Assembly: GCA_035292885.1 (NCBI GenBank) | Contig: DATDPG010000019.1 | Location: 59,570-123,569 of the forward strand | Length of the DNA stretch: 64,000 nt | Direction of reading: 5' to 3' | DNA from: Bdellovibrionota bacterium | GTDB lineage: Bacteria; Bdellovibrionota_G; JALEGL01; DATDPG01 | In this document: piece after piece, positions 12,625-51,312 of the stretch | Layout of the letters: every line of letters begins with the position of its first letter | Position numbering within the stretch: the stretch's first letter is position 1 | The notes under the pieces: model-generated | The model's database searches: none | Told to the model about the DNA's origin: nothing | The model's input: only the letters and a program-made list of their open reading frames with translations | Program-made: the position numbers and the translations under genes

Positions 12625-12975
12625 ATGAAATCGCTTGTTGTGGTTTTGGGTGTTCTTTTCGCGTCGAGTGCCATGGCGCAAGACAAACTCGCCTCGCAGA
12701 AGGCGTTGTTCGATAAGTATTGCAAGAAATGTCATGCCGAGGATGGGAGTGGGAAAAAGCCCACCGGTGAATGGCTGCCGGTCGTAAAGACGCTTAAATT
12801 GGAAAAGCCGGAAATGTTGAGCATCATCTCGGATGAAGCCAAGAAGAAGACGGACGACGACATCAAGAAAATGATCCTGGAAGGAAAAGACAAGATGAAG
12901 GCGACCAAAGCGACGCCGGAAGAGGCGATTGAACTGGTCGCATACGTTCGTCATTTGCAGGGCGGCACGAAGTAA
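12625..12975 (+). CDS. Small periplasmic monohaem cytochrome c
   Basis: Signal peptide MKSLVVVLGVLFASSAMA and a single CKKCH. RBS AGGAGG. About 60% identical by eye to the protein at 45214..45588. Confidence 0.85.
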   Translation: MKSLVVVLGVLFASSAMAQDKLASQKALFDKYCKKCHAEDGSGKKPTGEWLPVVKTLKLEKPEMLSIISDEAKKKTDDDIKKMILEGKDKMKATKATPEEAIELVAYVRHLQGGTK

Positions 12976-13011
12976 CAAAGACCGTTTTTAGGCTGTTCAA
13001 AGCCGGTCAGT

Positions 13012-13311
13012 TTAGAGGCCGTTTGTGCCGTGGCAACCGGCGCAGGCGGCCTCGCCCTGTGTGCGGACGATTTCCTGTATCGCGTCCAGATCGATCCCGG
13101 CAAGCGAACTCTGATTACTCTGGTGGATGTTCTTCGGAAGGTGGCACCCGAAGCAATCTGAACGCTGCCACCCCGGCTGATGCTCTTCTTCCGTGAGAAT
13201 CAACGACTGCGGCGAGTTAATAATGTCTCCATAATTTTCGCCCGGACTGTCATGACCGCAGCCGCTCATGAGGACCGCGAGGAAGAAAAGGATGTACGTT
13301 GGGCGGGTCAA
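13012..13311 (-). CDS. Dihaem cytochrome c lipoprotein
   Basis: I moved the start to TTG 13311 (TTGA overlap with the upstream stop; RBS GAAAGGA 8 nt upstream). This gives MTRPTYILFFLAVLMSGC (lipobox). Two motifs, CFGCH and CAGCH. Confidence 0.7.
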   Translation of the reverse strand: MTRPTYILFFLAVLMSGCGHDSPGENYGDIINSPQSLILTEEEHQPGWQRSDCFGCHLPKNIHQSNQSSLAGIDLDAIQEIVRTQGEAACAGCHGTNGL

Positions 13312-13910
13312 AAGGAGATTCCTTTCTTCGTATGGCAATCCCGGCAAAACTGAATCTGATGGCACGAACCGCACGAATGAGGATTCGCCCGCGCTTCGAC
13401 GGAATGGACGTAAAGGAACGTGCGCGGATGGACGGTCTGAAGGATCGAATCACGCTGCATGTGGCAATCGACACAGCTCGATCGATCGTGGCACGTGGCG
13501 CAGGAAAACTCGTCCAATCGGGCGAAGACGGCGTGCCGCTGCGTCCAATCGAGACGATGGTCCGCCGGGATTAGCGGCCGGACATCCTTGTGACAGAGAA
13601 AACATCTTTGGGTGGCCTGCGCGGCCATCTCCGGTTTGCGATGACAGTCATGGCACTTCCATACCGGGCCGGCTTCGCTCGTTATTACGAGCGGTTTTAG
13701 GGCGTCGCGCTGCGGATGACAGCTCAAGCAATGGAGATTCTTCTCCTGAATTACAGGCGCATGAACGGCGTGGTTAAACAAAATGGATGGATGAACGGTT
13801 TGCTTGGGTGTGACCTGGCGCCAGTCCCCGGTGCGGACGCATCCGCCGATGATCGTAACGGCGATCGGCGCGATCCAGAAAAAATGTTGGCGTAGTTTAG
13901 AAATAAACAT
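13308..13910 (-). CDS. Heptahaem cytochrome c, probable lipoprotein
   Basis: MFISKLRQHFFWIAPIAVTIIGGC (lipobox-like). Seven motifs: CLSCH, CHDCH, CFLCH, CATCH, CVDCH, CGSCH, CRDCH, including paired CxxCH-x4-CxxCH units. The start overlaps the barrel gene stop by 14 nt. Confidence 0.85.
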   Translation of the reverse strand: MFISKLRQHFFWIAPIAVTIIGGCVRTGDWRQVTPKQTVHPSILFNHAVHAPVIQEKNLHCLSCHPQRDALKPLVITSEAGPVWKCHDCHRKPEMAAQATQRCFLCHKDVRPLIPADHRLDWTQRHAVFARLDEFSCATCHDRSSCVDCHMQRDSILQTVHPRTFLYVHSVEARANPHSCGSCHQIQFCRDCHTKKGISF

Positions 13911-15126
13911 AACGAGCCGAGACTCCCACGCGAACATCCGCCGTTTGATCGATGTTCGAATTGATTTCGCCGTTTACGCCGAGCTCAAGTCCCCATCGCC
14001 ATGCGTACAAGCATCCCAGGCCGGTGTGAAGAGCGTAATCTTCCGACCCGGTCACCTTGTCATATCGAGCGACGGCGAAAGATCCTCTGGCCCGCCATCC
14101 GAGCGAGATCTGTTTTTCGAGCGAGCTCGTGAATCCTCCGGATCGTCCGCCGTAACTATCCTGAAAGAATGCTCGGACGGAGGCGATCCAGGGGCGAACC
14201 CCCTCGATCCATTGAAACCCGCCATCCACCATATGGCCGTCCTCGGATCGGGTGGTCAGAACTTCATAACGTTGAAAACTGTACCCCGCCTGAACCGAAA
14301 GTTTCGAAGAGACTCGGTACGCCGCTGCACCTCTCCCTTGCCATTCCTCCCCCTGGGAAAAGAGCGTAAAAATCCGGTCCTGCCATTCGAAATTATCGCG
14401 GGATTCGTTGTATCGGGCGAACTCTCCGGAGAGGAGCAAGGCATCCATGGGGAAGAGTTCAAGTCCTGCACGACCTGATCCGAAAAGGGTTTTGTCCGCC
14501 AGGTAATCGATCGAACCATATAATAGAGGCGTCCAAAAAAACGGGAGCGCTTGTTTGGCTCCGGCCACGATCCATTGCCGGTGGACTGTCTCCAGATCGT
14601 CTTCATACCGATACCCCATCGTCAGTGTGGTCGAGGAGAACGGTTGCAGCGTCAGGTCGGCGCCGATCAACGTGGATTCTTCGTCGAAATCGGAAATTTC
14701 AGGATGCCTTCGCAAGCCGCCGAAGAGACGTCCCGATATTCGTCTCCGGGTACCCAGAGAAACTTGCGCGCCGTCGAGAAGGATCAGCGACTCGAACGGG
14801 TTCGCCAGAAATCTCCCCGCCTGGGCGTTCATTCCCCATTCGGGCCGATTCCACGAAACACTCGCTTGGTAAAGATCGGCCTTGTTGTCCGGATTTATCA
14901 GATTGGACAAAATCTGGCCGTCCATTGAAAATTCCCCTTGCAGCGGGGAAATTGGGGCGCTCAGGCGAAGGCGATTCACCCACGGGAGTTCCCGGTCTCC
15001 GATCAGATTTTCCCGGATCTGATTATACGATCTGAGTTCGACGGTCGGACCGGCCCAAGAGAGTGTTGGAGCAAGAATGACCATCCATCCCAGCGTCCGA
15101 TACACCCCTCGAAAAAGAAATGGCAT
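13897..15126 (-). CDS. Outer-membrane beta-barrel (porin component of a porin-cytochrome module)
   Basis: Signal peptide MPFLFRGVYRTLGWMVILAPTLSWA, alternating amphipathic strands, and a C-terminal ...VSARYVYF (aromatic terminus). Paralogous by eye to 49972..51312 (AGRFLANPFESLILLDG vs AGRQFRQEFESLYFDG). Confidence 0.65.
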   Translation of the reverse strand: MPFLFRGVYRTLGWMVILAPTLSWAGPTVELRSYNQIRENLIGDRELPWVNRLRLSAPISPLQGEFSMDGQILSNLINPDNKADLYQASVSWNRPEWGMNAQAGRFLANPFESLILLDGAQVSLGTRRRISGRLFGGLRRHPEISDFDEESTLIGADLTLQPFSSTTLTMGYRYEDDLETVHRQWIVAGAKQALPFFWTPLLYGSIDYLADKTLFGSGRAGLELFPMDALLLSGEFARYNESRDNFEWQDRIFTLFSQGEEWQGRGAAAYRVSSKLSVQAGYSFQRYEVLTTRSEDGHMVDGGFQWIEGVRPWIASVRAFFQDSYGGRSGGFTSSLEKQISLGWRARGSFAVARYDKVTGSEDYALHTGLGCLYAWRWGLELGVNGEINSNIDQTADVRVGVSARYVYF

Positions 15127-15203
15127 ATGGATATTTTAGTGTTCGTCTCCCGAAGAATAAGAACCATGATATGCATCATGCCGGGATAATTCCCGTCAAG
15201 GGC

Positions 15204-16301
15204 ATGATCAAAGAAATGCGCGCTCGGCATCCATTGGGGTTGTGGAGTCTTATTTTCACGTTGCTGAGTGTTTCCCCGGCGCTGGCGGAAAAGGAGAAAC
15301 CTAAGAGCGGCTGTATCGCCGAGGGATGCCATGCCGTTCTCATGAACGCGAAAGTCGTGCATTCGGCGATCGAGGATGGCGCATGCGACGGATGCCATAC
15401 ACCTTCGGAGGGGAGCAGTCCCGACCAGGCGGGTGCCAAACATAAATTCGAGAAGATCGACGTCGGCCAGGCCTGCGGAGATTGCCATGAGGCCGCGAAA
15501 GACAAATCGATTCACAAGCCGTACGGCGAAGCGAAGTGCACCGCTTGCCACAATCCGCACTCGTCCGACCAGCCGGCTTTGTTGCGGGAAGAGTCGCCGG
15601 CACTTTGCCAGCCATGCCACGAAAAGATCGCCGCAATTTCCTCGCGAGGTTCGAGCGATCATCTGGTGGCCGACGGAAAACTCGCCTGCCTGAGCTGTCA
15701 CGAAGGTCACCTGTCGAAAATACCGAAACTTCTCCGAAAATCGCCGAAAGAACTCTGCTTGGGATGTCACAACAAGGAAATCTCGACACCTCAGGGAACT
15801 CTGGTCGATATCGCCGGTAAGCTCACCGACAAAAAAGCGACCGTCCATGACCCCGTCGCCGATGGGTGCGTCTCTTGCCATAATCCGCATGGGAGCGAAC
15901 TCCCGCGGCTCCTCGTCCGTTCGTATCCGACGGCCTGGTACGGCAATCCATCGATTTCTGCGTACGGCCTCTGTTTTGAGTGCCATGAAGCGGCCGGTTT
16001 TGAAGCCAAGGAGACCGAGGAGGGGACGGCGTTTCGAAACGGCAAGAAAAATCTCCATGCGGTCCACATCTTGAACGATCCGCTGGGCCGCTCCTGTTCC
16101 GCCTGCCACGACGTGCATGCGGCGGCGGGAGAGCACCTCATTCCGTCGCAAGTTCCCTTTTTCGGTTTCTTGGTTCCCACGAATTTCAAGACGGCGGAGA
16201 ACGGCGGCAGCTGTTTCCCGGGTTGCCATGAAGCGAGAGCCTACGATCGCTTGGAGGCTGTGCCTCTATCTAAGCCGGACTCGGGACACCCGAAACCTTA
16301 A
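15204..16301 (+). CDS. Periplasmic multihaem cytochrome c (9 canonical + 2 non-canonical motifs)
   Basis: Start taken at MIKEMRARHPLGLWSLIFTLLSVSPALA. Canonical motifs: CDGCH, CGDCH, CTACH, CQPCH, CLSCH, CLGCH, CVSCH, CFECH, CSACH. Non-canonical: CIAEGCH (CX4CH) and CFPGCH (CX3CH). Repeated CHNPH signature. Confidence 0.85.
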   Translation: MIKEMRARHPLGLWSLIFTLLSVSPALAEKEKPKSGCIAEGCHAVLMNAKVVHSAIEDGACDGCHTPSEGSSPDQAGAKHKFEKIDVGQACGDCHEAAKDKSIHKPYGEAKCTACHNPHSSDQPALLREESPALCQPCHEKIAAISSRGSSDHLVADGKLACLSCHEGHLSKIPKLLRKSPKELCLGCHNKEISTPQGTLVDIAGKLTDKKATVHDPVADGCVSCHNPHGSELPRLLVRSYPTAWYGNPSISAYGLCFECHEAAGFEAKETEEGTAFRNGKKNLHAVHILNDPLGRSCSACHDVHAAAGEHLIPSQVPFFGFLVPTNFKTAENGGSCFPGCHEARAYDRLEAVPLSKPDSGHPKP

Positions 16302-16406: not shown

Positions 16407-16910
16407 TTGGAACCGAACGGAAGATGGCTTTTGTATGCGTGTTGTTGCGTAGGGTCGGCACTGATCGTCTCCGGATGTCAGAGCGGGAGCGGTCAGCCGA
16501 TTCAATACAATCATAAAGTTCACGTGGAAGAGGCGGGAATGGATTGCGTGTCGTGCCACGTCAACGTCCAGAGCGGCGCCCGCGCCACGATTCCGAACAT
16601 CGACGTATGCCAGGATTGCCATTCCGAGGAGCCTTCGGCGGATAAAACGGAACTGAAGAAGTTATTCTCTTATACTTCGTCGAATAAAAAGATTCCTTGG
16701 CGGAAGGTTTACCGTGTGGACGCGCATATCTTTTTTTCGCATCGAAGGCACGCGGTTCTCGGGAACATTTTGTGTGAAACATGTCACGGAAAGGTTGGGG
16801 AGAAAATGACTCCGGTGACCGGACGGGCCGTGGCCATCACGATGAAAGGTTGCATGGATTGCCATGAGAAGAGGGGGGTAGCTAATGACTGCCTTCTTTG
16901 TCACCGGTGA
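16407..16910 (+). CDS. Pentahaem cytochrome c lipoprotein (ActA/QrcA-like)
   Basis: TTG start. LLYACCCVGSALIVSGC lipobox. Motifs CVSCH, CQDCH, CETCH, CMDCH, CLLCH. Sits directly upstream of the molybdopterin-family subunit. Confidence 0.8.
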   Translation: MEPNGRWLLYACCCVGSALIVSGCQSGSGQPIQYNHKVHVEEAGMDCVSCHVNVQSGARATIPNIDVCQDCHSEEPSADKTELKKLFSYTSSNKKIPWRKVYRVDAHIFFSHRRHAVLGNILCETCHGKVGEKMTPVTGRAVAITMKGCMDCHEKRGVANDCLLCHR

Positions 16911-16939: not shown

Positions 16940-19444
16940 ATGGCGAATATTGACCGAAGAAAATTCCTGAAGATCCTCGGCGCGAGCGCGACTGGAACGG
17001 CGCTGGGGGGTACGGCAACGGGCGCCATGGCCTGGCTTTGGAAGGTCCCGGACCACCTAATTGAAGAAGCGTTGCGTGGACCCGGGTTCGAGACGTTCAA
17101 GAATTCCGTCTGTCAATTGTGCCCGGCGGGTTGCGGCATACGGGTCCGACTGATCGATAACATCCCCGTCCGGATCGACGGGAATCCGACACACCCGATC
17201 AATCGTGGAGGCATCTGCCCGCAGGGCGCGGCCGGCCTCGATTTTCTGTTCCATCCCGATCGGATTCAGACGCCGCTCATCCGTGTGGGGCCGAGGGGGA
17301 AGGGGGAATTCAAAGCGATCGGTTGGGACGAGGCGCTGGGCAAATTGGCTGAACGTTTGGGAACCCTACGACAGAAAAGAACCCCCGAGCAGCTGGCCTG
17401 CTTCGTTTACGAAAAACGCGGGTTGATGCACGAAACGATCGGTCGATTCATGGACGGATTCGGATCGCGAAATTTGATCGCAACGGACGACGGGGAGCAC
17501 GATTATCTGCCCTATCAGCTCCTCTTCGGCTGGAAGAACCTGCCGGCGTACGACATCGAGAATGCGCGCTACCTGCTGAGTTTCGGCGCGAACATTCTGG
17601 ACGACGGCGTTTCTCCGCTGCACGCGATTCACGGATACCGGAAAATGAGGGAAGGCGCCGCCGGGGAACGGGGAAAGTTTGTTTTCGTGGATTCCCGGCA
17701 TTCCGTGACCGCCGCCAGCGCGGATGTTTATCTGCCGATCCTGCCCGGAACCCACGGAGCGTTTGCGCTTGCCGTGGCGTATGTGTTGATCAAAGAACGG
17801 CATCTCGATACGGCGTTTCTCCGCGACCACGTCGACGGCTTTGAGTCCTGGACCGACGACCGGGGGAATCGTCACGCGGGCTTCAAGGACTATGTCCTCG
17901 CGGACTTCTATCCCGAACGCGCCGCGAAGATCACCGGAGTTCCCGCGGAGAGAATCATCGACGTGGCCCGGAACTTCGGAAGAACGCGCCTGTCGTTGGC
18001 AGTCGTGGGAAATTTGGGCACCGATACGACCAACGGCCTCTGGAACGCGCTCGCGGTTCTCTCGCTGAACGTTCTCGTCGGGAATATCGAAACCAAGGGG
18101 GGCCTTCTTGTTCCGCGGGCGGCACCGTTTTCAAAACTCCCGGTCGTTCGTCCGGATGAAATCGCGAAGCGAGGGCTGAACAAACCTCTCCTCTTCGAAG
18201 CCGAGAATCGCCAGGCTCCCTTGGTTTCCGACTCCATGGGCCTCGCGTGCGAACGGATGGCCAAAGGCGAACCGTATTCCATCGATACGCTCTTGGTCTA
18301 TGGCACCAACCCTGCGTTTGACCACCCGTACGCGAAGAGTGTTCGCAAAGCGCTCGAGAAGATTCCGTTCATCGTCTCGTTTTCGGGAATTCGGGACGAG
18401 ACTGCGGAATATGCCGATCTGATCCTCCCCGATCATGCGTTTCTCGAAAAATGGTTCGATAGTGCCGACACGCCCGGCATCAAGTTCGCTCACGCGTCGG
18501 TCGGTTCCCCGGTAGTGAATCCCCTTTATCAAACCCGGCACACGGGAGATGTCCTGACGGAAGTTGCGGCGAAGCTGGGAGGGAGTGTGGCCCAGGCATT
18601 TCCACAATCGGATTTCCTTTCGGCCTTGCAGCAAAAGTTCAAGGGGATTTTCGCTTCCGGCGAGGGAACCGTCGTATCGGGCTCGTTCGAGGAATCGTGG
18701 GCGCAGTTCCTTAAAGAGCGGGGCTGGCAGAACCTCGTCTACGAGTCCTTCGAAGGTTTCTGGAAGGTATTGGCGGAGCGCGGCGGGTGGTGGGATCCGA
18801 CGCAGGATGTGATGTCTATCAAAGAAGCGATTCAGACGCGCACGGGGAAAATTATGCTCCGGCTCGACGAGCTTCAATCCAAAGCAAGTGAAGCGGCACG
18901 ATCCGTGGGTAAGGAAAATACCTCCCCTGAAGCCGCAAGCCGGATACTGGCTGCCTGGGGAATTCGAGAAACCGCTGACGCCGCCTTTCTTCCACACTAC
19001 GAGGAGCCCACGTTCACGGGCGAAGTAAAAGAGTTCCCGTACGTGTTGGTCACGTTCGGCTTGCTTTCAAATCGCAGAGGTTTCGGCTCATTTTCGCCGT
19101 TGCTCCAGGAAATGTTTGGTTATCCCGAGCGGATTTACTGGGATTCTTGGGTGGAATTGAATCCCCATACGGCGCACGAGCATCATCTTGTTTCGGAAGA
19201 CTGGGTGAAAATCTCGTCGCCGGCGGGGTCGCTTCGCGCGCGGGTTGTTTTCAATGAAGCGTTGGAGCCCCATACGGTGGCCGTACCGTTCGGCATGGGT
19301 CATACGTCCGGCGGGCGTTACGCCAAGGGCGTGGGTGTGAATCCCTATGAGATTCTGACGGAAGTGAGCGACGTCTTGCGGGGAAAGCCGGCGAAAGTCG
19401 CGACGCGCGTGAAAATTGAGAAATCCGAAAGGAAGGTCCGCTAA
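16940..19444 (+). CDS. Molybdopterin-oxidoreductase-family large subunit (PsrA/ActB1/QrcB-like), Tat-exported
   Basis: Twin-arginine signal MANIDRRKFLKILGASATG. FS0-type motif CQLCPAGC-x27-C. 834 aa with family-typical blocks (GWDEALGKLAERL, LLSFGANILD, LVYGTNPAFDHP). Confidence 0.85.
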   Translation: MANIDRRKFLKILGASATGTALGGTATGAMAWLWKVPDHLIEEALRGPGFETFKNSVCQLCPAGCGIRVRLIDNIPVRIDGNPTHPINRGGICPQGAAGLDFLFHPDRIQTPLIRVGPRGKGEFKAIGWDEALGKLAERLGTLRQKRTPEQLACFVYEKRGLMHETIGRFMDGFGSRNLIATDDGEHDYLPYQLLFGWKNLPAYDIENARYLLSFGANILDDGVSPLHAIHGYRKMREGAAGERGKFVFVDSRHSVTAASADVYLPILPGTHGAFALAVAYVLIKERHLDTAFLRDHVDGFESWTDDRGNRHAGFKDYVLADFYPERAAKITGVPAERIIDVARNFGRTRLSLAVVGNLGTDTTNGLWNALAVLSLNVLVGNIETKGGLLVPRAAPFSKLPVVRPDEIAKRGLNKPLLFEAENRQAPLVSDSMGLACERMAKGEPYSIDTLLVYGTNPAFDHPYAKSVRKALEKIPFIVSFSGIRDETAEYADLILPDHAFLEKWFDSADTPGIKFAHASVGSPVVNPLYQTRHTGDVLTEVAAKLGGSVAQAFPQSDFLSALQQKFKGIFASGEGTVVSGSFEESWAQFLKERGWQNLVYESFEGFWKVLAERGGWWDPTQDVMSIKEAIQTRTGKIMLRLDELQSKASEAARSVGKENTSPEAASRILAAWGIRETADAAFLPHYEEPTFTGEVKEFPYVLVTFGLLSNRRGFGSFSPLLQEMFGYPERIYWDSWVELNPHTAHEHHLVSEDWVKISSPAGSLRARVVFNEALEPHTVAVPFGMGHTSGGRYAKGVGVNPYEILTEVSDVLRGKPAKVATRVKIEKSERKVR

Positions 19445-20131
19445 ATGCCGCGATGGGGAATGGTGATCGATCTCGATAAGTGCACCGGCTGCGGCGCTTG
19501 CGTGGCCGGGTGCAAAGTGGAGAACAATGTCGCCGTCGGCTCGGCTGAACTCGGGCGGGAAAACCGAGCCATGTTCTGGATGGAGATGGTGAAGTTCGTG
19601 GAAGGGGAACACTATCCCGATGTGCGGATTCGGTACGTGCCGCGGCCTTGCTTTCAATGCGACAACCCACCGTGCACCCGTGTTTGTCCCGTCCGCGCGA
19701 CGTATCTCTCCGATGAGGGGATTGTGGCCCAAATCTACGCCCGCTGCATCGGATGTCGCTATTGCCAAGCGGCCTGCCCGTACACCGTCAAGTCTTTCAA
19801 CTGGTACGAGCCGAAGTGGAGCCAAGAACGGTCCAGTTGCTTGAATCCCGATGTGTCTCAGCGGCCGAAAGGGGTCGTGGAGAAGTGCACGTTTTGTCAC
19901 CACCGCCTGCAGGTGGCGCGGGAGAAAGCACGGGCCGAAAACCGATCTCTCCGCGAGGAGGATTACAAAGTGGCTTGCCAGGACGCCTGTCCGGCCGGAG
20001 CGATATTGTTCGGAGACTTGGAAGACAAGTCGACGCAGGTGTTCAAGCTCAGCAAGAGTCCGCGTGCCCAACGTCTCATGGAAGATCTCGGAACCGAGCC
20101 GAAGGTCTTCTACCTTTCGAGGGGAGGATGA
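19445..20131 (+). CDS. 4Fe-4S ferredoxin-type subunit (PsrB/NrfC/ActB2-like)
   Basis: WGMVIDLDKCTGCGACVAGCKVENN, RPCFQCDNPPCTRVCP, CIGCRYCQAACPY, KCTFCHHR. The start abuts the upstream stop (TAAATG). Confidence 0.9.
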   Translation: MPRWGMVIDLDKCTGCGACVAGCKVENNVAVGSAELGRENRAMFWMEMVKFVEGEHYPDVRIRYVPRPCFQCDNPPCTRVCPVRATYLSDEGIVAQIYARCIGCRYCQAACPYTVKSFNWYEPKWSQERSSCLNPDVSQRPKGVVEKCTFCHHRLQVAREKARAENRSLREEDYKVACQDACPAGAILFGDLEDKSTQVFKLSKSPRAQRLMEDLGTEPKVFYLSRGG

Positions 20132-20132
20132 C

Positions 20133-21715: not shown

Positions 21716-21719
21716 TGCG

Positions 21720-23691: not shown

Positions 23692-23835
23692 ACGATGAGC
23701 ATATATCCAATTCGGAAAGGGCGGATAACTTTTCAGCGTAATTCTAGTCCTGGAACTACCTGAGTTCTGAAATCACGAGATCGGCGTCGTATACGGCGCC
23801 GGAGGAGATGGCGGAGGGACTTCCGCCGGGGTATG

Positions 23836-26397: not shown

Positions 26398-26427
26398 CGT
26401 AGCTCCGGGTCGGATACGATCCCAGGC

Positions 26428-30256: not shown

Positions 30257-30269
30257 TCAGAGGTGTTTA

Positions 30270-39489: not shown

Positions 39490-39551
39490 TACACTATTAT
39501 CGTGTAACACGATTATCGTGTCAATGCCTCGACCGGGTGGTGCCAAGACAG

Positions 39552-42448: not shown

Positions 42449-42604
42449 TTACGACGAACGGTTGATTTTTAACCACCGGTCTCGGAGCGCGGGGTTATTT
42501 CTCCAGACCTCAAAGATCATCCTTCGGTATCCTTCGAGCCAAAGAATAATCTGTTCAGGCGTGAGTTTGGGTGTTCGTCCCCAGTCATGAGTTGTTTTAG
42601 GCAC
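42449..42604 (-). CDS. Possible 51-aa small ORF downstream of the NTase-fold gene (below track cutoff)
   Basis: GTG start overlapping the NTase stop. Hand translation gives MPKTTHDWGRTPKLTPEQIILWLEGYRRMIFEVWRNNPALRDRWLKINRSS. It resembles the small protein at 23509..23691. Confidence 0.25.
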   Translation of the reverse strand: MPKTTHDWGRTPKLTPEQIILWLEGYRRMIFEVWRNNPALRDRWLKINRSS

Positions 42605-43094
42605 TTTCTTGCCCTGTAAGTTTTCTCAATTCCGCTGCGTCGAAAAGGTCCTTGTCTCTGCCGGCTCTGTCCTTCATTTCAATCAGGTCCATTTTGCCGA
42701 TCACTCTAATTTTAATTCCAAAGGCATCGACCAACAATTGCCTGCCCGCAAGTTCCTGAAATGGCTTGGGTTCTTGTGAAAAGACATCGATGACTTCAAA
42801 TGGATTTCCCGGGTGAATGAAAGAGAAAACCATCATTCCCTTTTCCTCTATCCATTCTTTGCGTTTATGCGCATCGGCGAAATCTTTTGCATCAACCGGC
42901 AGGCGGGGCTTGAAACCAAGATGCGAGACCATTTCTACAAATGCCAGGACATTTTTGCGCTCAAGGTGCACGATGAGATCAAGATCCACGGTCGCTCGTT
43001 GGACCTGATGAAAATTCACGGCGAATCCGCCTGCGACGAGATACTCGATTTTTCTTCGGTCAAGCTCAATGAAAAGTTCTTTGTACGGAACCAT
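42597..43094 (-). CDS. Nucleotidyltransferase-fold protein (paralog of 22946..23512)
   Basis: LVAGGFAVNFHQVQRATVDLDLIV and VIGKMDLIEMKDRAGRDKDLFDAAEL. AT-richer than its flanks. Confidence 0.55.
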   Translation of the reverse strand: MVPYKELFIELDRRKIEYLVAGGFAVNFHQVQRATVDLDLIVHLERKNVLAFVEMVSHLGFKPRLPVDAKDFADAHKRKEWIEEKGMMVFSFIHPGNPFEVIDVFSQEPKPFQELAGRQLLVDAFGIKIRVIGKMDLIEMKDRAGRDKDLFDAAELRKLTGQESA

Positions 43095-45213: not shown

Positions 45214-45588
45214 TTATTTCGCCTTTGACTGCAGGTCTCGCGTGTATTCCGTCAACGCCGTAATGTCGGCGTCCGACAGTCCTTCCAACTTCTTCATCTT
45301 CCCTTTGCCCTCTTTCATCGACTTCTTAATGTCGTCGTCGGTGATTTTCTTGGCTTCGGGGGAAAGGATGCTGAGCCCTTCCGGCTTTTCGAGCTTCAGG
45401 GTTTTAGCTACCGGCATCCAGGAGCCGTCCGCCTTCTTTCCGCCGCCGTCTTCCGCGTGGCATTTCTTGCAATGCTTGTCGTACAGCGCCTTTTTCGCGG
45501 CGTCATCCGCCGCGAATGCGGACGCGGCAAACATCAAAGCGGGCACAACCAGGATTCCGATCAGTCCAATCAACGTCTTCTTCAACAT
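45214..45588 (-). CDS. Small periplasmic monohaem cytochrome c (paralog of 12625..12975)
   Basis: Start MLKKTLIGLIGILVVPALMFAASAFA behind RBS GGAGGA. Single CKKCH. Confidence 0.85.
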   Translation of the reverse strand: MLKKTLIGLIGILVVPALMFAASAFAADDAAKKALYDKHCKKCHAEDGGGKKADGSWMPVAKTLKLEKPEGLSILSPEAKKITDDDIKKSMKEGKGKMKKLEGLSDADITALTEYTRDLQSKAK

Positions 45589-45650
45589 AGGCTTCCTCCA
45601 GTGTTTCTTTTTAGATGATGCCAAATTTACGAACATGATTCGGATCAATG

Positions 45651-45685
45651 AAATGAAAAGAGGGCCGGCCCGTATGGGCCGGCCC
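45651..45685 (-). terminator. Rho-independent-type hairpin inside the cytochrome gene string
   Basis: Perfect 10-bp GC stem gggccggccc / gggccggccc with a 4-nt loop (45662..45685). On the minus strand it is followed by TCTTTTCATTT. Confidence 0.6.
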
Positions 45686-45719
45686 CGTCAATCGCTCTGG
45701 ACGGTTCAAACTCTCGCGC

Positions 45720-48700
45720 TTAACGCAACGTCGCGTTCGGAACCGCCACGCCGGTGATTACCTTATACGTCCCTTGGAGGACGCCGACCTCGTATCCGGC
45801 GTTATGGACGCCCATGCTGCCGTCTCGAACCACCAGATTGTGGTTCCAGATCGCCCGGCGGATCTTGTCGGATCGGGCCCACTTGAAGGCCCCGCCGGCG
45901 GGATAGACGCTAACGCCGGGGTTGCAGTCCGCGGCGTTCGTGCAGGCCGTAGTAAGGTCGTTGTCGCACTTGCCGGCAATGTACGCCCCGCACGTGCTGA
46001 GGCACTTGTCGTGCGTCGGCGTCGGATCCAAAGGATCGACCGTACCACACGAGATGGTCGTATCTTCTTTGCACCGGTTCTTGCTCGAACCCGAGGTATT
46101 GCACGGACGCGCATCCGCGCCTGCACCGTTGAAGTTCGAGTAACCCAGAGCGTCCGGAACGATGCAGTCGTTGTCCGTGGAACACTCGATCTCATCCGTA
46201 CTCCCGGCGGTGGACCTCGGTTTTGCGATGGTGCACTTGTTGGTCGCAGTGACACAGGGGCCGAAGTACATCGTCCCCGTCGTCGCAATTTTGCAGTCCT
46301 CGTCCTTGGAGCAACTATAGGCCGAACGTTGATCACACTTTCCGGCTGTGATCGTCCCGCACGGTCCGTAGTTCGTCGCTGATACGGTCGTCACATTCAC
46401 CTTCTTCAGGTTGCATCCGGCATCCGAAGTGCAGAATTGAGCGTCGGCCACAATCGTAGTACTTGCTGCCGAGCAAGTCTTGACCGCGTCGCAACTCGTG
46501 TCACCAGCCGCCGTGCAACTGATGTAGGGCGCCAGCGTACACTTCTTGTTTGCGTTGCAGTCACCCGCGTCCAGTGTAGTGACACTGCACGTTCCCAGGT
46601 TCACGTCGTCGTACGCTTTGATGGCGTCCGACAAGAGGAGCGCAAGCCCCGTGACTTCGTCCTGGATCCCCTCGATCGTCCCATCGCCGTCGTAATCGCC
46701 GCGAGCCTCACGGTTAATCTCCGTGAGATCCGTGTGACATGGCGTGCACGCGCTGATGTTCGCGAGCTCACCCGCTTCACCGGCTACGGTCTCCTCTTCC
46801 TCGGCACCGACTAGATGGCCGACGCCGTGACCGCTCATAATGTTGAAAGAGTGACCGCCCAAGTGGCGGAACCCATCCTCCGTCGCATCCGGCCCCTCGG
46901 CCATGTGGCACGTGAGGCACTTCCGGTTCTCCGTCGGCAATGTCGGGTCACCCGAAACATCCGCCAGAATAAATCCCGGCTCGGAATGGAACGAATTCCC
47001 CGTTGTGAAGACATCGTCGATTCCGTTTTTGTCGAGGTCGAGAAGAGCCCCCTTTCCTTCGAGAACGGGAGCCTGCGGATTGTAGTGGACCTGTCGCGTG
47101 TAATAGTCCGCGTTTTGCTCCAACGTCTCGCAGAGCGTATCTGAAACGCCGTCGCGATTCGTGTCGCACGAAAACTCTCCGAAACTGTAGAGGCCGTCGT
47201 GGCACTTGTAACAAACGGCCGCCTTCCCGGCATCCACTGTCGATTCGTCGATGATCATCTCGAGCTCTCCGTGCATTCGAAGCTGGTCCTCGTTTGTCGC
47301 GTCGTGCGGGTCATGACACCCAGCGCACCCGATACCGACGAAAGCCTCCTGTTCCGTGATCGGCGTGAGGGCTTCCTCGCCCCCCTCCACATAATTGATG
47401 AAGCCCTTGGAGGTATGGCAGCGTGTACAGGCTGCGTTCGTGAGCCATGAAACCTGATAGCTGGCGGAGCCGTGCGAGACGCCGGTCATGTTGTGCGAGG
47501 AGTTGATCCATTCGGCCTCTTGCGTATGACACTGGCCGCAGATACCGGTCTGAGAAGCGGAGACACCGATCTTCGTGGCGTCGCCGTTGTGTCCCGAACC
47601 CGGGCCATGGCAATTCTCACACTGAACACCGCTTAGAGCGGCCACGGAAGGCGCATCCGCCAAGAAATCGGCGTATGTGCCCGGCTGGGTGGAAACGTCA
47701 AAGCCGGTCGAGGCCACGGCCTCGTCAAATCCGCCGTTTGCGGCGGACGTATTGTAACCGACCGTTTCAAAGCCCCACAGATAGGGCTCGGGTGCCAGCG
47801 ATGACATGGCCAGATACGAATTTTCGTAGAGCTTTGAGTGATTTGTTCCCTGCCACTCGCCGACTTTGTCCGGCATCGCCGAACCGTCATGGCATCCGGC
47901 GCACTCGGGCCTCGCCGCGTCGCCGGTGATACTTCCGATGCCTACATACGTCCCGGCATACATCCGGAACGAACCCACGATCGTGCAATGATCCACGCCG
48001 CCGTCCGAGGTGTATTTACAATTGGGCGCGACACGGCCGCACGCCCGTACACCATCCGCATCGGGTCCCACAGCCGATTCATCGACCGTCGCCGTGTAGG
48101 CCACCGTGTAATACCCCTCGACATCCGGCGTGAACTTGGGGAGCTGAAGCGCTGAGGCTACGGTTCCGGAATCGGCAAAAACGGCTGCAGATCCATCCGG
48201 GGGTGTCAGCGTCCAAGACCAGTCATCGTTGATGGGCTTGGCGCGCCTCGTGGTCGGCGTGCTCGTCGAAGGCAACGAACCGTTACACGCTGTCGAAGTG
48301 GATGTGTACTCCAATATGACCGAACTGTTCGGTCCCTGCAGGTAGAGGGGAACATTCAGCGGAACGGTCCAAAGACCGCTCGACCGCTGAATCTCGGCAC
48401 CGGCGTCCTGAACATAGACCACCTGTGTCGTGCTGTCGCTGTTCCCGGCACCGTCGTCCACCGTCAACCTGAAATAGAGTTTCGTATCTTCGATCGAAAC
48501 AGGGAGCGGTTGCCACTTGTACTCATCACTTTGTCCGCCGTGCGCGGCGTTCTCCTCAGCTTCCCTCAAACCGACGGTCAGAAAATCCTTAAGCGCGGGA
48601 GCGGTGAACGGAAGAGTTGAGGACGTGCTCCCGGCCGTCGCGGTCGCGAAGGGGCCGGAGACCTGCTGCCAGCTGTAGTTCACGACACTTCCGCGGCTGT

Positions 48701-49163
48701 TTTCGCCGGAGAGAATTCCACCCGCGTCTTCCAAATCGATGGCCAGTTCATCCGTTCCGAATCGTGTGCGTGTGGTGATGGTGGAACCGGAACCGTTCGT
48801 GATGACCGCAAGAATCGTCTTGGCCGTGACGCTGACCGTGTCGGTGCTTTCGGCATCGTGGAGAGAGAGTTTCAACACGTACGTGCCGGCCGCGTCCGCG
48901 ACAAAGCTGGTCGCGATTTCGGAACCGCCCGTCAGAGCGGCGGAAGAACCGTCGGGTTTCGATTCAAGCGTCCATATAATATTGCCGACGACCGTGCTTC
49001 CGGAACCGTCCAAATTCACGGTGTCGCCGATCAGGACCTTCTGGTCCTCGCCTGCGTTAGCGGCGGCGGTCCCTTCCGGATCGTCGTCGCATGCCGAAAC
49101 ACTGATCGCCACGGCGGCAGCCGCGAGAAGATTGATCATCCAAAGTCCCTTCGTGCTTTTCAT
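45720..49163 (-). CDS. Giant surface lipoprotein octahaem cytochrome c with PKD-like domains and Cys-rich C-terminal repeats
   Basis: Start MKSTKGLWMINLLAAAAVAISVSAC (lipobox; RBS GAGGGAGAG). Motifs CAGCH, CENCHGPGSGH, CGQCH, CTRCH, CAGCHDPH, CYKCH, CLTCH, CTPCH. PKD-like DTVNLDGSGS...AGTYVLKLSLHD. C-terminal 4-Cys modules. Confidence 0.85.
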   Translation of the reverse strand: MKSTKGLWMINLLAAAAVAISVSACDDDPEGTAAANAGEDQKVLIGDTVNLDGSGSTVVGNIIWTLESKPDGSSAALTGGSEIATSFVADAAGTYVLKLSLHDAESTDTVSVTAKTILAVITNGSGSTITTRTRFGTDELAIDLEDAGGILSGENSRGSVVNYSWQQVSGPFATATAGSTSSTLPFTAPALKDFLTVGLREAEENAAHGGQSDEYKWQPLPVSIEDTKLYFRLTVDDGAGNSDSTTQVVYVQDAGAEIQRSSGLWTVPLNVPLYLQGPNSSVILEYTSTSTACNGSLPSTSTPTTRRAKPINDDWSWTLTPPDGSAAVFADSGTVASALQLPKFTPDVEGYYTVAYTATVDESAVGPDADGVRACGRVAPNCKYTSDGGVDHCTIVGSFRMYAGTYVGIGSITGDAARPECAGCHDGSAMPDKVGEWQGTNHSKLYENSYLAMSSLAPEPYLWGFETVGYNTSAANGGFDEAVASTGFDVSTQPGTYADFLADAPSVAALSGVQCENCHGPGSGHNGDATKIGVSASQTGICGQCHTQEAEWINSSHNMTGVSHGSASYQVSWLTNAACTRCHTSKGFINYVEGGEEALTPITEQEAFVGIGCAGCHDPHDATNEDQLRMHGELEMIIDESTVDAGKAAVCYKCHDGLYSFGEFSCDTNRDGVSDTLCETLEQNADYYTRQVHYNPQAPVLEGKGALLDLDKNGIDDVFTTGNSFHSEPGFILADVSGDPTLPTENRKCLTCHMAEGPDATEDGFRHLGGHSFNIMSGHGVGHLVGAEEEETVAGEAGELANISACTPCHTDLTEINREARGDYDGDGTIEGIQDEVTGLALLLSDAIKAYDDVNLGTCSVTTLDAGDCNANKKCTLAPYISCTAAGDTSCDAVKTCSAASTTIVADAQFCTSDAGCNLKKVNVTTVSATNYGPCGTITAGKCDQRSAYSCSKDEDCKIATTGTMYFGPCVTATNKCTIAKPRSTAGSTDEIECSTDNDCIVPDALGYSNFNGAGADARPCNTSGSSKNRCKEDTTISCGTVDPLDPTPTHDKCLSTCGAYIAGKCDNDLTTACTNAADCNPGVSVYPAGGAFKWARSDKIRRAIWNHNLVVRDGSMGVHNAGYEVGVLQGTYKVITGVAVPNATLR

Positions 49164-49189
49164 GTTTTCTCTCCCTCTCATGAAAGTTC

Positions 49190-49984
49190 TTACTGCGTAT
49201 GACATATGATGCAAGCCTGTCCATTGTCCGGATGCCGAAGCGGCGTATGGCAGCCCCGGCAATCCGCGTTAGGTAGATGGTTGACGTTGCTCGGTCGCCT
49301 CGGCGTGGCCATGTGAGCCGAGCTCGTTTGGTGGCACACCACGCACCTCTGTGCCCCATACGATTCCAGCGGGTAATGACAGTTCAGGCAGTGCCGATTT
49401 TGGGACGCCCCGAACCCGGCCATGTGATCGATCGGCTTCGTTTCCATATGGCACCGCTGGCAGAAGTCGGTCCGGTGGCACGTCATGCACTGCGATCGGT
49501 CGAAGCCCACCTGGAGCGCATGGCCGCGGAGGCGGAAGAATTGGTTGTGATTCGCCGGCGGCGTGATCTGGTGGCATTCCGAGCAGCTGGACTGCGTGTG
49601 GCAGAGGTTGCAGCTGTTCTTCGTGTCGAACCTAAACCGCTGCACCAGCGCGCCGTGCTCATGCTTGAACGTCAAATCGTGCCAGGCCGGTTTCGTGTCT
49701 TTGGTCATCCCGCCTTCGTGACATTCCGAACAGTCGCTGTCTCGCGCAACATCCGGGTGCTCCCACGTTGTGCCTTCGTCGCACCCTTTGTTGCCGAGAA
49801 AAAATGGGACCGCGAGCATTATTGTTAAAACAGACAACGATCGTCTGATGGGGTGCCAAGAAAATACGTTCGGGCTCCGGTCCCGACGGTACCCCCCAAG
49901 TCCATGCTCGAGACTGCGCGTGGACTTGGGTGTCCCCGTCGGGCCACCCGAACGTATTTTCTTGGCACCCTTCAAAAGTTCCAA
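49190..49984 (-). CDS. Nonahaem cytochrome c (periplasmic/barrel-inserted component)
   Basis: CSECH, CNLCH, CSECH, CMTCH, CQRCH, CLNCH, CVVCH, CRGCH, CIICH, with paired CxxCH-x4-CxxCH units as in 13308..13910. Hydrophobic segment LSVLTIMLAVPFFLGNKGC. The exact start is uncertain. Confidence 0.85.
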   Translation of the reverse strand: MELLKGAKKIRSGGPTGTPKSTRSLEHGLGGYRRDRSPNVFSWHPIRRSLSVLTIMLAVPFFLGNKGCDEGTTWEHPDVARDSDCSECHEGGMTKDTKPAWHDLTFKHEHGALVQRFRFDTKNSCNLCHTQSSCSECHQITPPANHNQFFRLRGHALQVGFDRSQCMTCHRTDFCQRCHMETKPIDHMAGFGASQNRHCLNCHYPLESYGAQRCVVCHQTSSAHMATPRRPSNVNHLPNADCRGCHTPLRHPDNGQACIICHTQ

Positions 49985-51312
49985 GCGACCCTCACATCCA
50001 ACGTATGGAAATTGTCCAGGTCACTGGTTTCAAATTCGTACCCGAGCCGCCCCTCAAAGTCTTTGAGAAACTTCACGGTTCCCCGCGCATAGTACGTTTG
50101 GACGTTGTCCGATTCGTTCCCGGCTAAAAGGTTATATCGATAGAGGTAGAAAGCTGTTCCGGCCGTCAGCCGCAGCTTCCGCTTCAACAGGTCTTGGGCG
50201 ATGGAGAAAGATGTCCCGTACGTATCGTTCTGAAGTTCGTTGTCCTGTCCCAAATAGTAATCGCCGGTTAACGAAAGGCTCATGCCGTCGAGCGGCCATT
50301 CGATCGTTGACCCCGTCAAAAAGAACCGCTGAAAACCGTGATTGAACGCACTGGCGACCTGCTCTTCAATCAAAATACGGAATGCATACCCCGCATCCAG
50401 GGCAAAATGCTCGCCGATCCCCTTCATCCCGGTGAAGGCCATTTCGTAATACGGTTTGTATTCCCCGGCGAACGAATACGGATCCAGATCGATCACGCGG
50501 ACACCGTACGACTCGAGGAGACTGAAGAAGTGAAACTGGAGAGAAAGGTTCTGTTCGATGAATCGGTACCGGGTGTCGAGGGCCAAGTCCCGGACTTGAT
50601 CCAAGAACGATGTAAACCTCGAGGAAATCATGAGCCCCGGCTGGGCGTCCCACCAAACGCTCAGGCCGAAGAGATCATCTTCGATGTCACCGACGTTCGC
50701 CCGGAAGCCGGTGAAGTCATCCTTCAAATGAACGTAATCGAAACGGGCCCGAACCACCTTGACCGGATCGATCTCAAACGCTCCGCCGGCGACAAAATCG
50801 CCGCTGTCGGAACCGGTTTCCGTTTCGTAGAAATGGACCGGAACGCCGCCGTACGACATCAGCTTGAACCCTTTGGCTTCCCGCCACTGAAGGGAGAGGC
50901 CGTCGAAGTACAGCGACTCGAATTCCTGCCGGAACTGCCGTCCCGCGCGAAGCCGATCGAATACGCCGAGGTTGTTGGCGTCGAGGTAGGCGTGGTAGAT
51001 CCGCCCCGCGGCGCCGGTGTTGAAGGAGTCGTACACGCCATTGAACGTGGAATCCGAACTGTCGCCGTCCAGGTCGAAAATCCCGCCGGCCTGCAGGGAA
51101 ACCGCCACGCGGTCGTTCAAAGGCTCGCCCATGTTGAGCGAAAGAAGCGTTTCAAGATCCTGATCGCTGGTATCGGCGGTGGCGCGCAGTTTGTAACGGG
51201 TGCTGATGGAACCGAAAATATTGGAGTCTTCCGCGATCGCCGCATCGCAATAGACATACGCCCCAAAAAGGAGAAGCGTACATCCCAACCGACGGCGGCG
51301 AGAGGCGAGCAT
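49972..51312 (-). CDS. Outer-membrane beta-barrel (porin component of a porin-cytochrome module)
   Basis: Signal MLASRRRRLGCTLLLFGAYVYCDAAIA, amphipathic strands, and C-terminal ...LDVRVAWNF. Paralogous by eye to 13897..15126. Confidence 0.65.
   Translation of the reverse strand: MLASRRRRLGCTLLLFGAYVYCDAAIAEDSNIFGSISTRYKLRATADTSDQDLETLLSLNMGEPLNDRVAVSLQAGGIFDLDGDSSDSTFNGVYDSFNTGAAGRIYHAYLDANNLGVFDRLRAGRQFRQEFESLYFDGLSLQWREAKGFKLMSYGGVPVHFYETETGSDSGDFVAGGAFEIDPVKVVRARFDYVHLKDDFTGFRANVGDIEDDLFGLSVWWDAQPGLMISSRFTSFLDQVRDLALDTRYRFIEQNLSLQFHFFSLLESYGVRVIDLDPYSFAGEYKPYYEMAFTGMKGIGEHFALDAGYAFRILIEEQVASAFNHGFQRFFLTGSTIEWPLDGMSLSLTGDYYLGQDNELQNDTYGTSFSIAQDLLKRKLRLTAGTAFYLYRYNLLAGNESDNVQTYYARGTVKFLKDFEGRLGYEFETSDLDNFHTLDVRVAWNF

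Follow-up and report, generated by a model that had tools for sequence, protein, structure and literature searches.

A chromosomal respiratory locus in a Bdellovibrionota contig that probably links the quinone pool to the cell exterior through a split inner-membrane core

Twelve cytochrome genes and three quinone-interacting membrane modules crowd into 39 kb of contig DATDPG010000019.1, from a genome assigned to Bdellovibrionota (assembly GCA_035292885.1). This crowding raises the question of whether the genes form a transferable island, a chance gathering of unrelated respiratory operons, or a locus whose parts belong together. We analyzed a stretch of 64,000 nucleotides (contig positions 59,570 to 123,569), hereafter the window, and all results rest on this 64-kb window and on related loci. 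An earlier note, made from the sequence alone, had described positions 12625 to 51312 of the window as a possible extracellular-respiration island resembling the branched electron-transfer networks of Geobacter. Our analysis suggests that the region is probably a chromosomal, modular respiratory locus linking the quinone pool to the cell exterior. Its core, an Alternative Complex III (ACIII)-like module and a Rieske/cytochrome b module, appears to have been split, and it does not behave as a mobile island.

We counted canonical haem-binding CXXCH motifs in all six frames, with no reliance on gene calls. The window contains 72 motifs, and 70 of them lie inside 12 cytochrome open reading frames (ORFs) between 12625 and 51312. 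In map order these genes carry 1, 2, 7, 9, 5, 4, 4, 9, 11, 1, 8 and 9 motifs, which reproduces the total of the earlier note and each of its per-gene counts. The remaining two motifs are incidental: the 4Fe-4S subunit at 19445-20131 and the alcohol dehydrogenase at 57652-58734 contain one each. In the 4,518 residues of the 12 ORFs, chance would supply 0.016 motifs from background amino-acid frequencies and 0.34 from the ORFs' own composition.

The locus has a density of 1.81 CXXCH motifs per kb. We compared it to 63 loci of at least 15 kb, each centered on a homologous multihaem or ACIII-like gene. The median density of these loci was 1.64 per kb, 32% of them exceeded the window's value, and the densest held up to 74 motifs in 22 kb. 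These data indicate that haem density here is typical for this class of locus and not exceptional, a comparison that says nothing about genomes in general. Haem-dense neighborhoods are common around such genes, and this would favor the view that the proximity of the modules is coincidental, with unrelated respiratory operons of a cytochrome-rich genome falling within 39 kb by chance. The evidence that bears most directly on this view comes from related loci and is given below, after the modules themselves.

All three quinone modules reported in the earlier note are present where it had placed them, and they belong to unrelated families: an NrfD-type subunit (PF03916), a cytochrome b (PF00033) with a Rieske protein (PF00355), and a fusion protein with a PF01292 domain. 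The NrfD-type module is an ACIII-like complex by the top solved relatives of its subunits, which are ActA, the C-terminal half of ActB, and ActC. Its genes lie on the forward strand. One encodes an ActA/QrcA-like pentahaem lipoprotein (16407..16910; five CXXCH motifs, lipobox …VSGC). In the PDB this protein is matched best by the ActA chain of each of the four solved ACIIIs (E 3e-21 to 7e-17). A split B subunit follows. B1 (16940..19444) is an 834-residue member of the molybdenum/tungsten-bisPGD family with predicted export by the twin-arginine translocation (TAT) pathway (PF00384, PF04879, PF01568 and a weak TAT match). B2 (19445..20131) is a four-cluster Fe-S protein of the Fer4 families, and its top PDB match is the C-terminal half of ActB (6f0k_B, 1.3e-58).

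The quinone-interacting membrane subunit of this module (20133..21485, forward strand) is an ActC-like, NrfD-family protein of 450 residues with 9-10 transmembrane (TM) helices, nine of which were called by a crude hydropathy scan. It matches PF03916 at 116 bits, and its top PDB matches are all ActC chains: 6f0k_C (4.2e-73), followed by 8k9e_C, 6lod_C and 6btm_C. ActF chains match it weakly, and no second NrfD-family ORF that could represent ActF was found among the Pfam-scanned ORFs of the window. Overlapping the actC-like stop codon is a gene for a 77-residue subunit with two TM segments (21482..21715, forward strand, within an ORF at 21209-21715), which was absent from the earlier note's list. 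This small ORF is conserved at the equivalent position in two related contigs, with 79 residues in L083 and 77 in L084. It was considered as ActD and rejected, since it gave no DUF3341 match even at E<=1.

Two tetrahaem cytochromes belong with this module. Tetrahaem-B (21678..22931, forward strand; probable start 21720) is ActE-like, with four CXXCH motifs and four class-I cytochrome c domains (PF00034, 106.8 bits in three stretches). Tetrahaem-A (37130..38365, reverse strand; four CXXCH motifs, PF00034) is its paralogue at 35% identity. Tetrahaem-A shares 49% and 47% identity with the upstream tetrahaem proteins of L083 and L084, respectively. By these comparisons it is the orthologue of the gene that opens the ACIII-like operon in those contigs, displaced here beyond an intervening 14-kb segment.

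What does B1 do in such a complex? B1 aligns over its full length with ArrA (6cz7, 4.6e-66) and also with PsrA (2vpw), with a gap exactly at the Mo-ligand Cys. In an alignment of 20 members of the B1 family, a 2-residue deletion at this Cys is common to the whole close subfamily, whose members range down to about 40% identity. Distant homologues, annotated as Nitrospinota, Deltaproteobacteria and Rokubacteria, retain the motif SSICADG, and the cysteines of the FS0 [4Fe-4S] cluster are retained in all 20 members. Because the Mo-ligand Cys is deleted across the close subfamily, B1 is most likely a cofactor-less scaffold. QrcB and ActB have been described as cofactor-less homologues that are partnered by NrfD subunits with ten TM helices (PMC6303296). 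The B1 family (homologues P0124-P0239) is split in the same respect: the subfamily with ActA-, ActB2- and ActC-like partners has lost the Mo-ligand Cys and the distant members have kept it. Judged from these alignments, the split looks like an intermediate stage toward cofactor-less B subunits.

The same matches also invite a different interpretation, in which B1 functions in the periplasm as an active Arr/Psr/Phs-type reductase of oxyanions or polysulfide and its gene cluster encodes a conventional complex iron-sulfur molybdoenzyme that lies near cytochromes by chance. Such an enzyme would fit the top solved relatives, ArrA at full length and PsrA, as well as the TAT-type signal and the intact FS0 cysteines, and Asp residues near the gap could in principle ligate Mo. 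However, the Cys that serves as ligand in ArrA and PsrA falls within the deletion of the entire close subfamily. In addition, NCBIfam scores are far below their cutoffs (ArrA 247 against 1600, PhsA 267 against 694, TtrA 95 against 1750), and the partner subunits are of the ActA, ActB2 and ActC types and not of the Arr or Psr types. We consider a working reductase highly implausible and rejected the arsenate/polysulfide reductase reading of this subunit because its ligand Cys is deleted. An annotation of 'ArrA/PsrA-like molybdopterin oxidoreductase' in clusters of this kind probably marks a scaffold and is no evidence for arsenate or polysulfide respiration.

When comparing the module to ACIII (ActABCDEF; Rhodothermus marinus 6f0k, Flavobacterium johnsoniae 6btm, 6lod, 8k9e), we find a pentahaem ActA, a four-cluster Fe-S protein and ActC in common. 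Both also have a Mo-family module that lacks the metal ligand, although for the window protein the absence of the cofactor is read from sequence. The differences are as follows. The B subunit of the window is split into B1 and B2, with B1 closer to ArrA and PsrA than to ActB, and ActF is lacking. A 77-residue protein with two TM segments and no DUF3341 signature stands at the position of ActD. Two tetrahaem class-I cytochromes take the place of the monohaem ActE, and no oxidase genes adjoin the operon. A precedent exists in the MBNT15 bacterium SHF-111, whose 'ACIII-like' cluster 4 encodes ActABCD plus a four-haem ActE-like protein, sits away from oxidase genes and has been proposed to serve Fe(III) reduction (PMC9386147). 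The window shares with that cluster both the ACIII-like core and the four-haem ActE-like architecture.

A third comparison is with QrcABCD of sulfate reducers (PMC6303296). The two systems share a four-subunit plan: a membrane-anchored multihaem cytochrome c, a cofactor-less Mo-family subunit, an Fe-S protein and an NrfD-family protein. Qrc models are the top NCBIfam matches for three of the window's subunits, yet all four scores fall below the equivalog cutoffs (QrcA 94.9 against 180, QrcB 320 against 440, QrcC 306 against 400, QrcD 39 against 570). In contrast to Qrc, the membrane subunit of the window is of the ActC type, and its context includes no type I cytochrome c3, hydrogenase or sulfate-reduction genes.

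The second quinone module is encoded on the reverse strand. A Rieske [2Fe-2S] subunit with an N-terminal anchor (41856..42308; PF00355, 51.9 bits, and a sub-threshold TM_PetC match) is followed by a cytochrome b in which a b6-like N-terminal half is fused to a subunit-IV-like C-terminal half (40790..41941; PF00033, 177.7 bits; PF00032, 38.6 bits). The two genes overlap or abut. The top PDB match of the cytochrome b is cytochrome b6 (1e-53), and it is 52-64% identical to its homologues in loci from Kryptonia and Ignavibacteria. The next gene encodes a nonahaem cytochrome c that carries a signal peptide and is anchored by a C-terminal TM segment at residues 424-442 (39552..40916; nine CXXCH motifs; probable start near 40793). 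This cytochrome would be the c-type subunit of the complex. When compared to canonical Rieske/cytochrome b complexes, the nonahaem TM-anchored protein replaces cytochrome c1 or f. Rieske/cytochrome b complexes with multihaem c subunits have already been discussed (Dibrova et al. 2013, as cited in PMC5317091), and the module described here shares with them the Rieske protein, a b6-type cytochrome b and a multihaem c partner. It differs from them in that, here and in about half of the related loci, it is genetically linked to an ACIII-like operon.

The third module is a CbcL/MtrH/MtoC-type fusion protein of 643 residues (43237..45168, reverse strand), with an 11-haem periplasmic c domain and a presumably dihaem, HydC/FdnI-type b-cytochrome domain with TM segments. 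Its 11 CXXCH motifs lie at residues 50-352, and PF01292 (Ni_hydr_CYTB) matches residues 425-611 at 37.9 bits (cutoff 30.1). FdnI (1kqf_C) is a weak PDB match. From this architecture we infer a quinol oxidase/quinone reductase module. The protein is identical (100%) to HLG18483.1, the window proteins being HLG18451-HLG18483. It has at least 6,986 homologues, and among GTDB species representatives its identity to any named genome is at most 45%, except for one metagenome-assembled genome at 61%. Homologues of CbcL, MtrH and MtoC are known from 15 phyla, carry 3-23 haem motifs and are often encoded beside conduit and cytochrome genes (Zhong & Shi 2018, PMC6295460). The window protein shares with CbcL of Geobacter sulfurreducens the N-terminal multihaem c domain, the HydC/FdnI-type b domain and the clustering with cytochrome and conduit genes. 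It has 11 haem motifs compared to nine in Geobacter CbcL (PMC6295460), and no ImcH or CbcBA partner is encoded near it.

Directly upstream of the CbcL-like gene lies a gene for a monohaem class-I cytochrome c (45214..45648, reverse strand; PF00034, one CXXCH motif). This gene is conserved as the neighbor of the CbcL-like gene, and the pair recurs in L002 and on the P0004 contig. A second monohaem class-I cytochrome c, of 116 residues with a signal peptide (12625..12975, forward strand; PF00034, PF13442, one CXXCH motif), is its paralogue at 62% identity. A strong terminator-like hairpin (45661..45686, reverse strand), whose 11-bp stem contains 10 G·C pairs and leads into a T-run, stands between the pair and the conduit genes further upstream. 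Its position fits the occurrence of the monohaem/CbcL pair without a conduit on another contig.

If the three modules lie together by chance, they should rarely meet elsewhere. On the three contigs with the closest B1 homologues (L083, L084 and L085), the five-gene operon of pentahaem cytochrome, B1, B2, ActC and the small ORF is present with flanking tetrahaem genes: tetrahaem-A and tetrahaem-B together in L083 and L084, the upstream tetrahaem gene only in L085. On L083 the nonahaem, cytochrome b and Rieske genes follow directly after the ACIII-like operon on the opposite strand and are in turn followed by a CbcL-like gene, so that all three modules lie within about 14 kb and the 14-kb intervening segment of the window is missing. 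L084 carries the ACIII-like operon alone, with no other quinone module.

We extended this comparison from the ACIII side by scanning metagenomes with the ActC-like subunit, which yielded 24 loci of at least 15 kb. The four-gene core is present in all 24. In 23 of the 24 a tetrahaem gene, a homologue of the tetrahaem-B type (36-58% identity), adjoins the operon. The Rieske, cytochrome b and nonahaem genes are directly adjacent to the ACIII-like operon in 12 of the 24 loci. After dereplication the adjacency holds in 8 of 17 clusters at 95% ActC identity and in 7 of 13 at 85%. On three metagenome contigs (L126, L127 and L129) the two modules are interleaved on one strand in the order Rieske, cytochrome b, pentahaem, B1, B2, ActC, tetrahaem, nonahaem (TM-anchored). 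This interleaving is the strongest hint that the two complexes are co-expressed. We found no description of the genetic link between ACIII-like and Rieske/cytochrome b-multihaem modules in the literature searched.

Among 80 CbcL loci of species representatives, 10 have Rieske, cytochrome b and nonahaem homologues within 10 kb downstream of the CbcL-like gene, and these 10 come from Kryptonia, Ignavibacteria, Eisenbacteria and Thermoanaerobaculia. From the ACIII side, only 1 of the 24 loci has a CbcL-like gene and none has a member of the barrel-B family, the outer-membrane barrel described below. L002/L003 show synteny across the five genes that run from conduit B to CbcL, at 44-61% identity. 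They are the nearest conduit-CbcL relatives, and they have no Rieske/cytochrome b genes within 10 kb and carry other genes between CbcL and a conserved PAP2 gene. Identities likewise vary by module. To L083 they are 82% for ActC, 80% for B2, 63% for B1, 58% for cytochrome b and 37% for CbcL, compared to 61% for CbcL of L003. Unequal evolutionary rates could explain part of these differences.

The clustering is meaningful and not accidental, because the same pairs of modules recur adjacently across independent lineages. By our own estimate, chance alone would place a Rieske/cytochrome b operon no more than 10 kb from a given gene in about 1% of genomes, compared to about 50% observed. The same modules are adjacent in many independent lineages and sometimes interleaved in one string of genes. 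Coincidence is very unlikely on these grounds, even though haem-dense neighborhoods as such are common. The simplest reading of these comparisons is that the ACIII-like and Rieske/cytochrome b/multihaem pair is a widely conserved core, which in the window has been split by a native 14-kb segment and rearranged. In support of such a split, the tetrahaem-A orthologue is found past the 14-kb segment on the opposite strand, and its customary position is taken by an MtrA-like gene. CbcL and the conduits appear to be lineage-specific additions.

The earlier note had gone further and proposed a transferable island. This reading, in which the 39-kb block moved or was gained and lost as one unit, would draw on several observations. 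The closest relatives of the ACIII-like and Rieske/cytochrome b modules (57-82% identity) come from contigs with type IX secretion system (T9SS)-tail genes, probably of the FCB group, and the source genome is labelled Bdellovibrionota. FCB-type relatives are compatible with ancient transfer of individual modules between phyla. Toxin-antitoxin (TA)-type genes stand at module boundaries (DUF6036 genes at 22946 and 42597, a PIN gene at 38829), and the 42597 gene has a GC content of 0.46. Furthermore, the segment from CbcL to PAP2 is wholly different from that of the nearest relative.

The composition of the block, however, is that of its surroundings. The GC content is 0.564 and 0.565 in the two clusters that flank the intervening segment, compared to 0.559-0.573 in the flanks, with this window as the background. 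Codon-frequency distance is 0.032-0.036 in every group of genes, and the 4-mer correlation is uniform over flanks, clusters and middle segment. Together with GC content at third codon positions, these measures leave the block indistinguishable from its flanks. No integrase, transposase or conjugation genes were found in Pfam scans of the window, it holds 0 tRNAs, and no direct repeats border the block. A long 'inverted repeat' (12690-12900 and 45292-45502) was considered as an island border and rejected, as it consists merely of the two monohaem paralogues.

Nor do the modules travel as a unit. They are combined differently in different genomes, and their presence and absence vary independently in L002/L003, in L084 and in the 24 ACIII-like loci, a coarse comparison with no very close relative. 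Independent presence and absence is an outcome that the earlier note had named as counting against its proposal, and it is seen here in part. A search of plasmids returned no CbcL-like gene and only canonical ActC at less than 40% identity, and those plasmid-borne actC genes are followed by DUF3341 genes. The TA-type genes at the boundaries and the gene with a GC content of 0.46 are the sole hints of local insertion. These data do not support a mobile island. Given the homogeneous composition, the lack of borders formed by tRNAs, repeats or integrases, the failure to find close counterparts on plasmids and the independent occurrence of the modules, we consider transfer of the block as one unit very improbable.

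How would electrons reach the cell exterior? The second cluster includes a set of genes on the reverse strand that we call conduit B. A predicted outer-membrane beta-barrel of 446 residues and about 22 strands, barrel B (49972..51312), would be its porin. Its predicted model has a pLDDT (predicted local distance difference test) score of 86 and matches outer-membrane barrels only. Searched with a family profile, the PDB sequences gave no match to barrel B, and it has no Pfam match, including to MtrB_PioB (PF11854), which 1 of 46 family members matches weakly. The adjoining gene encodes a nonahaem cytochrome of 264 residues (49190..49984; nine CXXCH motifs), with a true start probably near 49850-49865. 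Its L002 homologue, at 54% identity, aligns from residue 46. The protein is a candidate periplasmic or barrel-inserted partner. An octahaem lipoprotein of 1180 residues with PKD-like domains follows (45720..49262; eight CXXCH motifs, lipobox …VSAC, K319L-like_PKD). It has a 44% identical homologue in L002 in the same gene order, no solved relative was found in a PDB search, and it is a candidate for the extracellular terminal cytochrome of conduit B. The association of a barrel with multihaem and lipoprotein cytochromes is well supported here; electron transfer itself is predicted. The MtrB chain of the Shewanella MtrCAB complex (6r2q) has 649 residues, compared to the 446 residues and about 22 strands of barrel B. 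MtrB has 26 strands. A further difference from MtrCAB and from the Geobacter Pcc/Ext conduits is the outer cytochrome, which in the window is the 1180-residue PKD-domain protein with no solved relative.

An extended hairpin lies between the stop of the barrel-B gene and the start of the nonahaem gene (49851..49970, reverse strand), with perfect 24-nt arms at 49851-49874 and 49947-49970. The 151-nt stretch 49835-49985 folds at -94.9 kcal/mol (z = -10.1). The 3' arm is near or over the probable start region of the nonahaem gene, and the hairpin could control translation or processing in the conduit operon. In the nearest relative the genes overlap at this position and no such element is present. 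A miniature inverted-repeat transposable element (MITE) or repetitive extragenic palindromic (REP) element was considered and rejected, as the window contains one copy of the hairpin and 165 loci contain none.

A second conduit, conduit A, is probable from its gene content. Its putative outer-membrane beta-barrel A (13897..15126, reverse strand) has 409 residues, a signal peptide, the C-terminal sequence …YVYF and a sub-threshold DUF2490 match. Aromatic residues make up 13% of the protein, and its amphipathic-beta periodicity resembles that of the window's Alginate_exp porin. In an hhalign comparison to the barrel-B family the probability was only 31% (E 5e-4, 309 collinear columns). A single-sequence AlphaFold2 model was uninformative (pLDDT 30), and a word-indexed search of 5.8 billion proteins found no homologue besides the protein itself. 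Two lipoprotein-type cytochromes are encoded downstream on the same strand: a heptahaem protein (13308..13937; seven CXXCH motifs, lipobox …IIGGC, cytochrome c3/c7 Pfam matches), which is a candidate outer partner of conduit A, and a dihaem protein with the lipoprotein-type signal …LMSGC, encoded by the last gene of the barrel-A operon (13012..13374; two CXXCH motifs, Paired_CXXCH_1).

The remaining component of conduit A is an MtrA/DmsE-like periplasmic multihaem cytochrome (15120..16301, forward strand; nine CXXCH motifs; Paired_CXXCH_1, 135.8 bits; Mtrc-MtrF_II-IV_dom; probable start near 15204), whose gene occupies the place of the first tetrahaem gene in relatives. Extra variant motifs, CX4CH and CX3CH, suggest that it may bind 10-11 haems. 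Its top solved relative is chain A of the Mtr complex (6r2q_A, E 1.5e-13), and a match to the DmsE-family decahaem model fell below the cutoff. The local PDB copy names 6r2q_A 'Cystathionine beta-synthase', although the entry is titled 'Structure of the Mtr complex'; this is an apparent depositor or annotation artefact. Of the two outer-membrane conduits proposed in the earlier note, conduit B is therefore upheld by its barrel model, and conduit A, with its orphan barrel, is probable only.

Taken together, these parts suggest a path for electrons. Menaquinol would be oxidized at one or more of the ACIII-like, Rieske/cytochrome b and CbcL-type modules of the inner membrane. From there electrons could be relayed by monohaem, tetrahaem and MtrA-like cytochromes of the periplasm and traverse the outer membrane along cytochromes embedded in the barrels. 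Lipoprotein cytochromes at the cell surface would hand them to insoluble acceptors, for example Fe(III) or Mn(IV). In principle the same hardware could run in either direction. In this form the interpretation of the earlier note partly stands: the window does hold a multi-module extracellular-respiration locus with three quinone modules and porin-cytochrome hardware. Its analogy to Geobacter is loose, as no ImcH-type protein is present.

Rieske/cytochrome b complexes normally work with high-potential partners, and electrons could instead flow inward. Under this alternative Fe(II), Mn(II) or a cathode-like donor would supply electrons through the conduits, to be divided between a downhill path to an oxidase and an uphill path to quinone through the Rieske/cytochrome b and ACIII-like modules. 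The window encodes ten class-I cytochrome c domains in four proteins in addition to the Rieske/cytochrome b complex, and FeoAB and NnrS genes stand just upstream, all of which would agree with uptake. CbcL/MtrH/MtoC homologues, moreover, occur in Fe(III) reducers and Fe(II) oxidizers alike (PMC6295460). On the other hand, Cyc2, oxidases, RuBisCO and further markers of autotrophy were not found in Pfam scans of the 64 kb. The genes that flank the locus are of heterotroph type (malic enzyme, glutamate dehydrogenase, enoyl-CoA hydratases). The named relatives with CbcL-like clusters, Geothrix and Melioribacter (PMC9386147), are iron reducers. We regard the inward direction as possible but unlikely.

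Several points weigh against a split core that exports electrons through two conduits, which remains our preferred interpretation. The split of an ancestral contiguous cluster is deduced from other lineages, and L083 and L084 carry T9SS-tail genes. Barrel A lacks homologues and a usable model, which leaves the second conduit uncertain. Subcellular locations are assigned from signal peptides and lipoboxes. Finally, the many class-I cytochromes, usually of high potential, and the Rieske/cytochrome b complex would also suit electron uptake or oxidases encoded elsewhere.

The two halves of the locus are parted by a 14.2-kb non-respiratory segment (22946..37113), equal in composition to its flanks. 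It contains a DUF6036 gene, a TIG/TSP3 protein, two Ser/Thr kinases, a transporter of the major facilitator superfamily (MFS)/TLC type, PAP2 and three ORFs with no Pfam match; a Metallophos match was weak and sub-threshold (20.3 bits, cutoff 21.5). The PAP2 gene has a 51% identical homologue at the equivalent place in L002. The window encodes three Ser/Thr kinases in all, at 6490-8175 (with a C-terminal PilZ domain), 26428-28017 and 30270-31850, and the latter two are paralogues at 42% identity that flank the MFS/TLC-type transporter. Two further interruptions lie within the second cluster, both on the reverse strand. Between tetrahaem-A and the nonahaem gene are a PIN-domain gene (PF01850, 37.3 bits) and a small upstream ORF (38829..39546), which is possibly an RHH-type antitoxin (weak, sub-threshold RHH_5 and DUF6364 matches). 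Between CbcL and Rieske is a DUF6036-like nucleotidyltransferase gene (42597..43094), with no Pfam match and 27% identity to the DUF6036 protein at 22946 by BLAST. With a GC content of 0.464 it is the sole compositional outlier. The 14.2-kb segment, the PIN gene and the two DUF6036 genes agree with the interruption by a signalling/envelope segment and TA-type genes that had been described earlier.

Genes on either side of the locus may be connected to it. NnrS and the ferrous iron uptake genes FeoA/FeoB (2357-3553 and 9975-12463) lie directly upstream of the first cluster and may have a connection to the respiratory locus. The stretch 4393-6427 encodes a universal stress protein along with three CBS-domain proteins; at 8 of the 80 genome loci a homologue of the universal stress protein (32-36% identity) is encoded no more than 10 kb from the CbcL-like gene. 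At the other end, 57652-63141 encodes an alcohol dehydrogenase, two enoyl-CoA hydratases and two HGD-D (2-hydroxyacyl-CoA dehydratase D-component-like) proteins. Homologues of all five genes (29-63% identity) stand beside the CbcL-Rieske-cytochrome b cluster of an Eisenbacteria genome (L055, 1197-7423), and the two HGD-D genes alone (57-69%) lie upstream of the ACIII-like operon on a metagenome contig (L087). This gene set may represent a conserved metabolic neighborhood. An Rfam scan of the whole window gave no match. Promoter and terminator consensus scans of the window returned counts at or below the shuffle expectation, and operons were not defined by them.

The kind of locus described here is already known, as many bacteria from sediment and groundwater have comparable modular clusters. 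What the window adds is a full inventory of parts for extracellular electron transfer, from an uncultured lineage labelled Bdellovibrionota by NCBI. Members of the Bdellovibrionota are often predatory (PMC11495043), and we found no report of extracellular electron transfer in this group in the literature searched. The comparison also suggests a principle of construction, in which a conserved inner-membrane core acquires different CbcL-type modules and conduits in each lineage. The recurrent ACIII-like/Rieske linkage provides a testable hypothesis of functional coupling. In its strongest form, which we consider doubtful, the ACIII-like and Rieske/cytochrome b-multihaem complexes would be an obligate pair, acting as a supercomplex or as a quinone loop in which one oxidizes and the other reduces quinone. 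The presence of such a pair with two outer-membrane conduits in a Bdellovibrionota lineage would, if true, point to a metal-respiring lifestyle. It would also let electrons pass between extracellular minerals and the quinone pool in a reversible or energy-conserving way.

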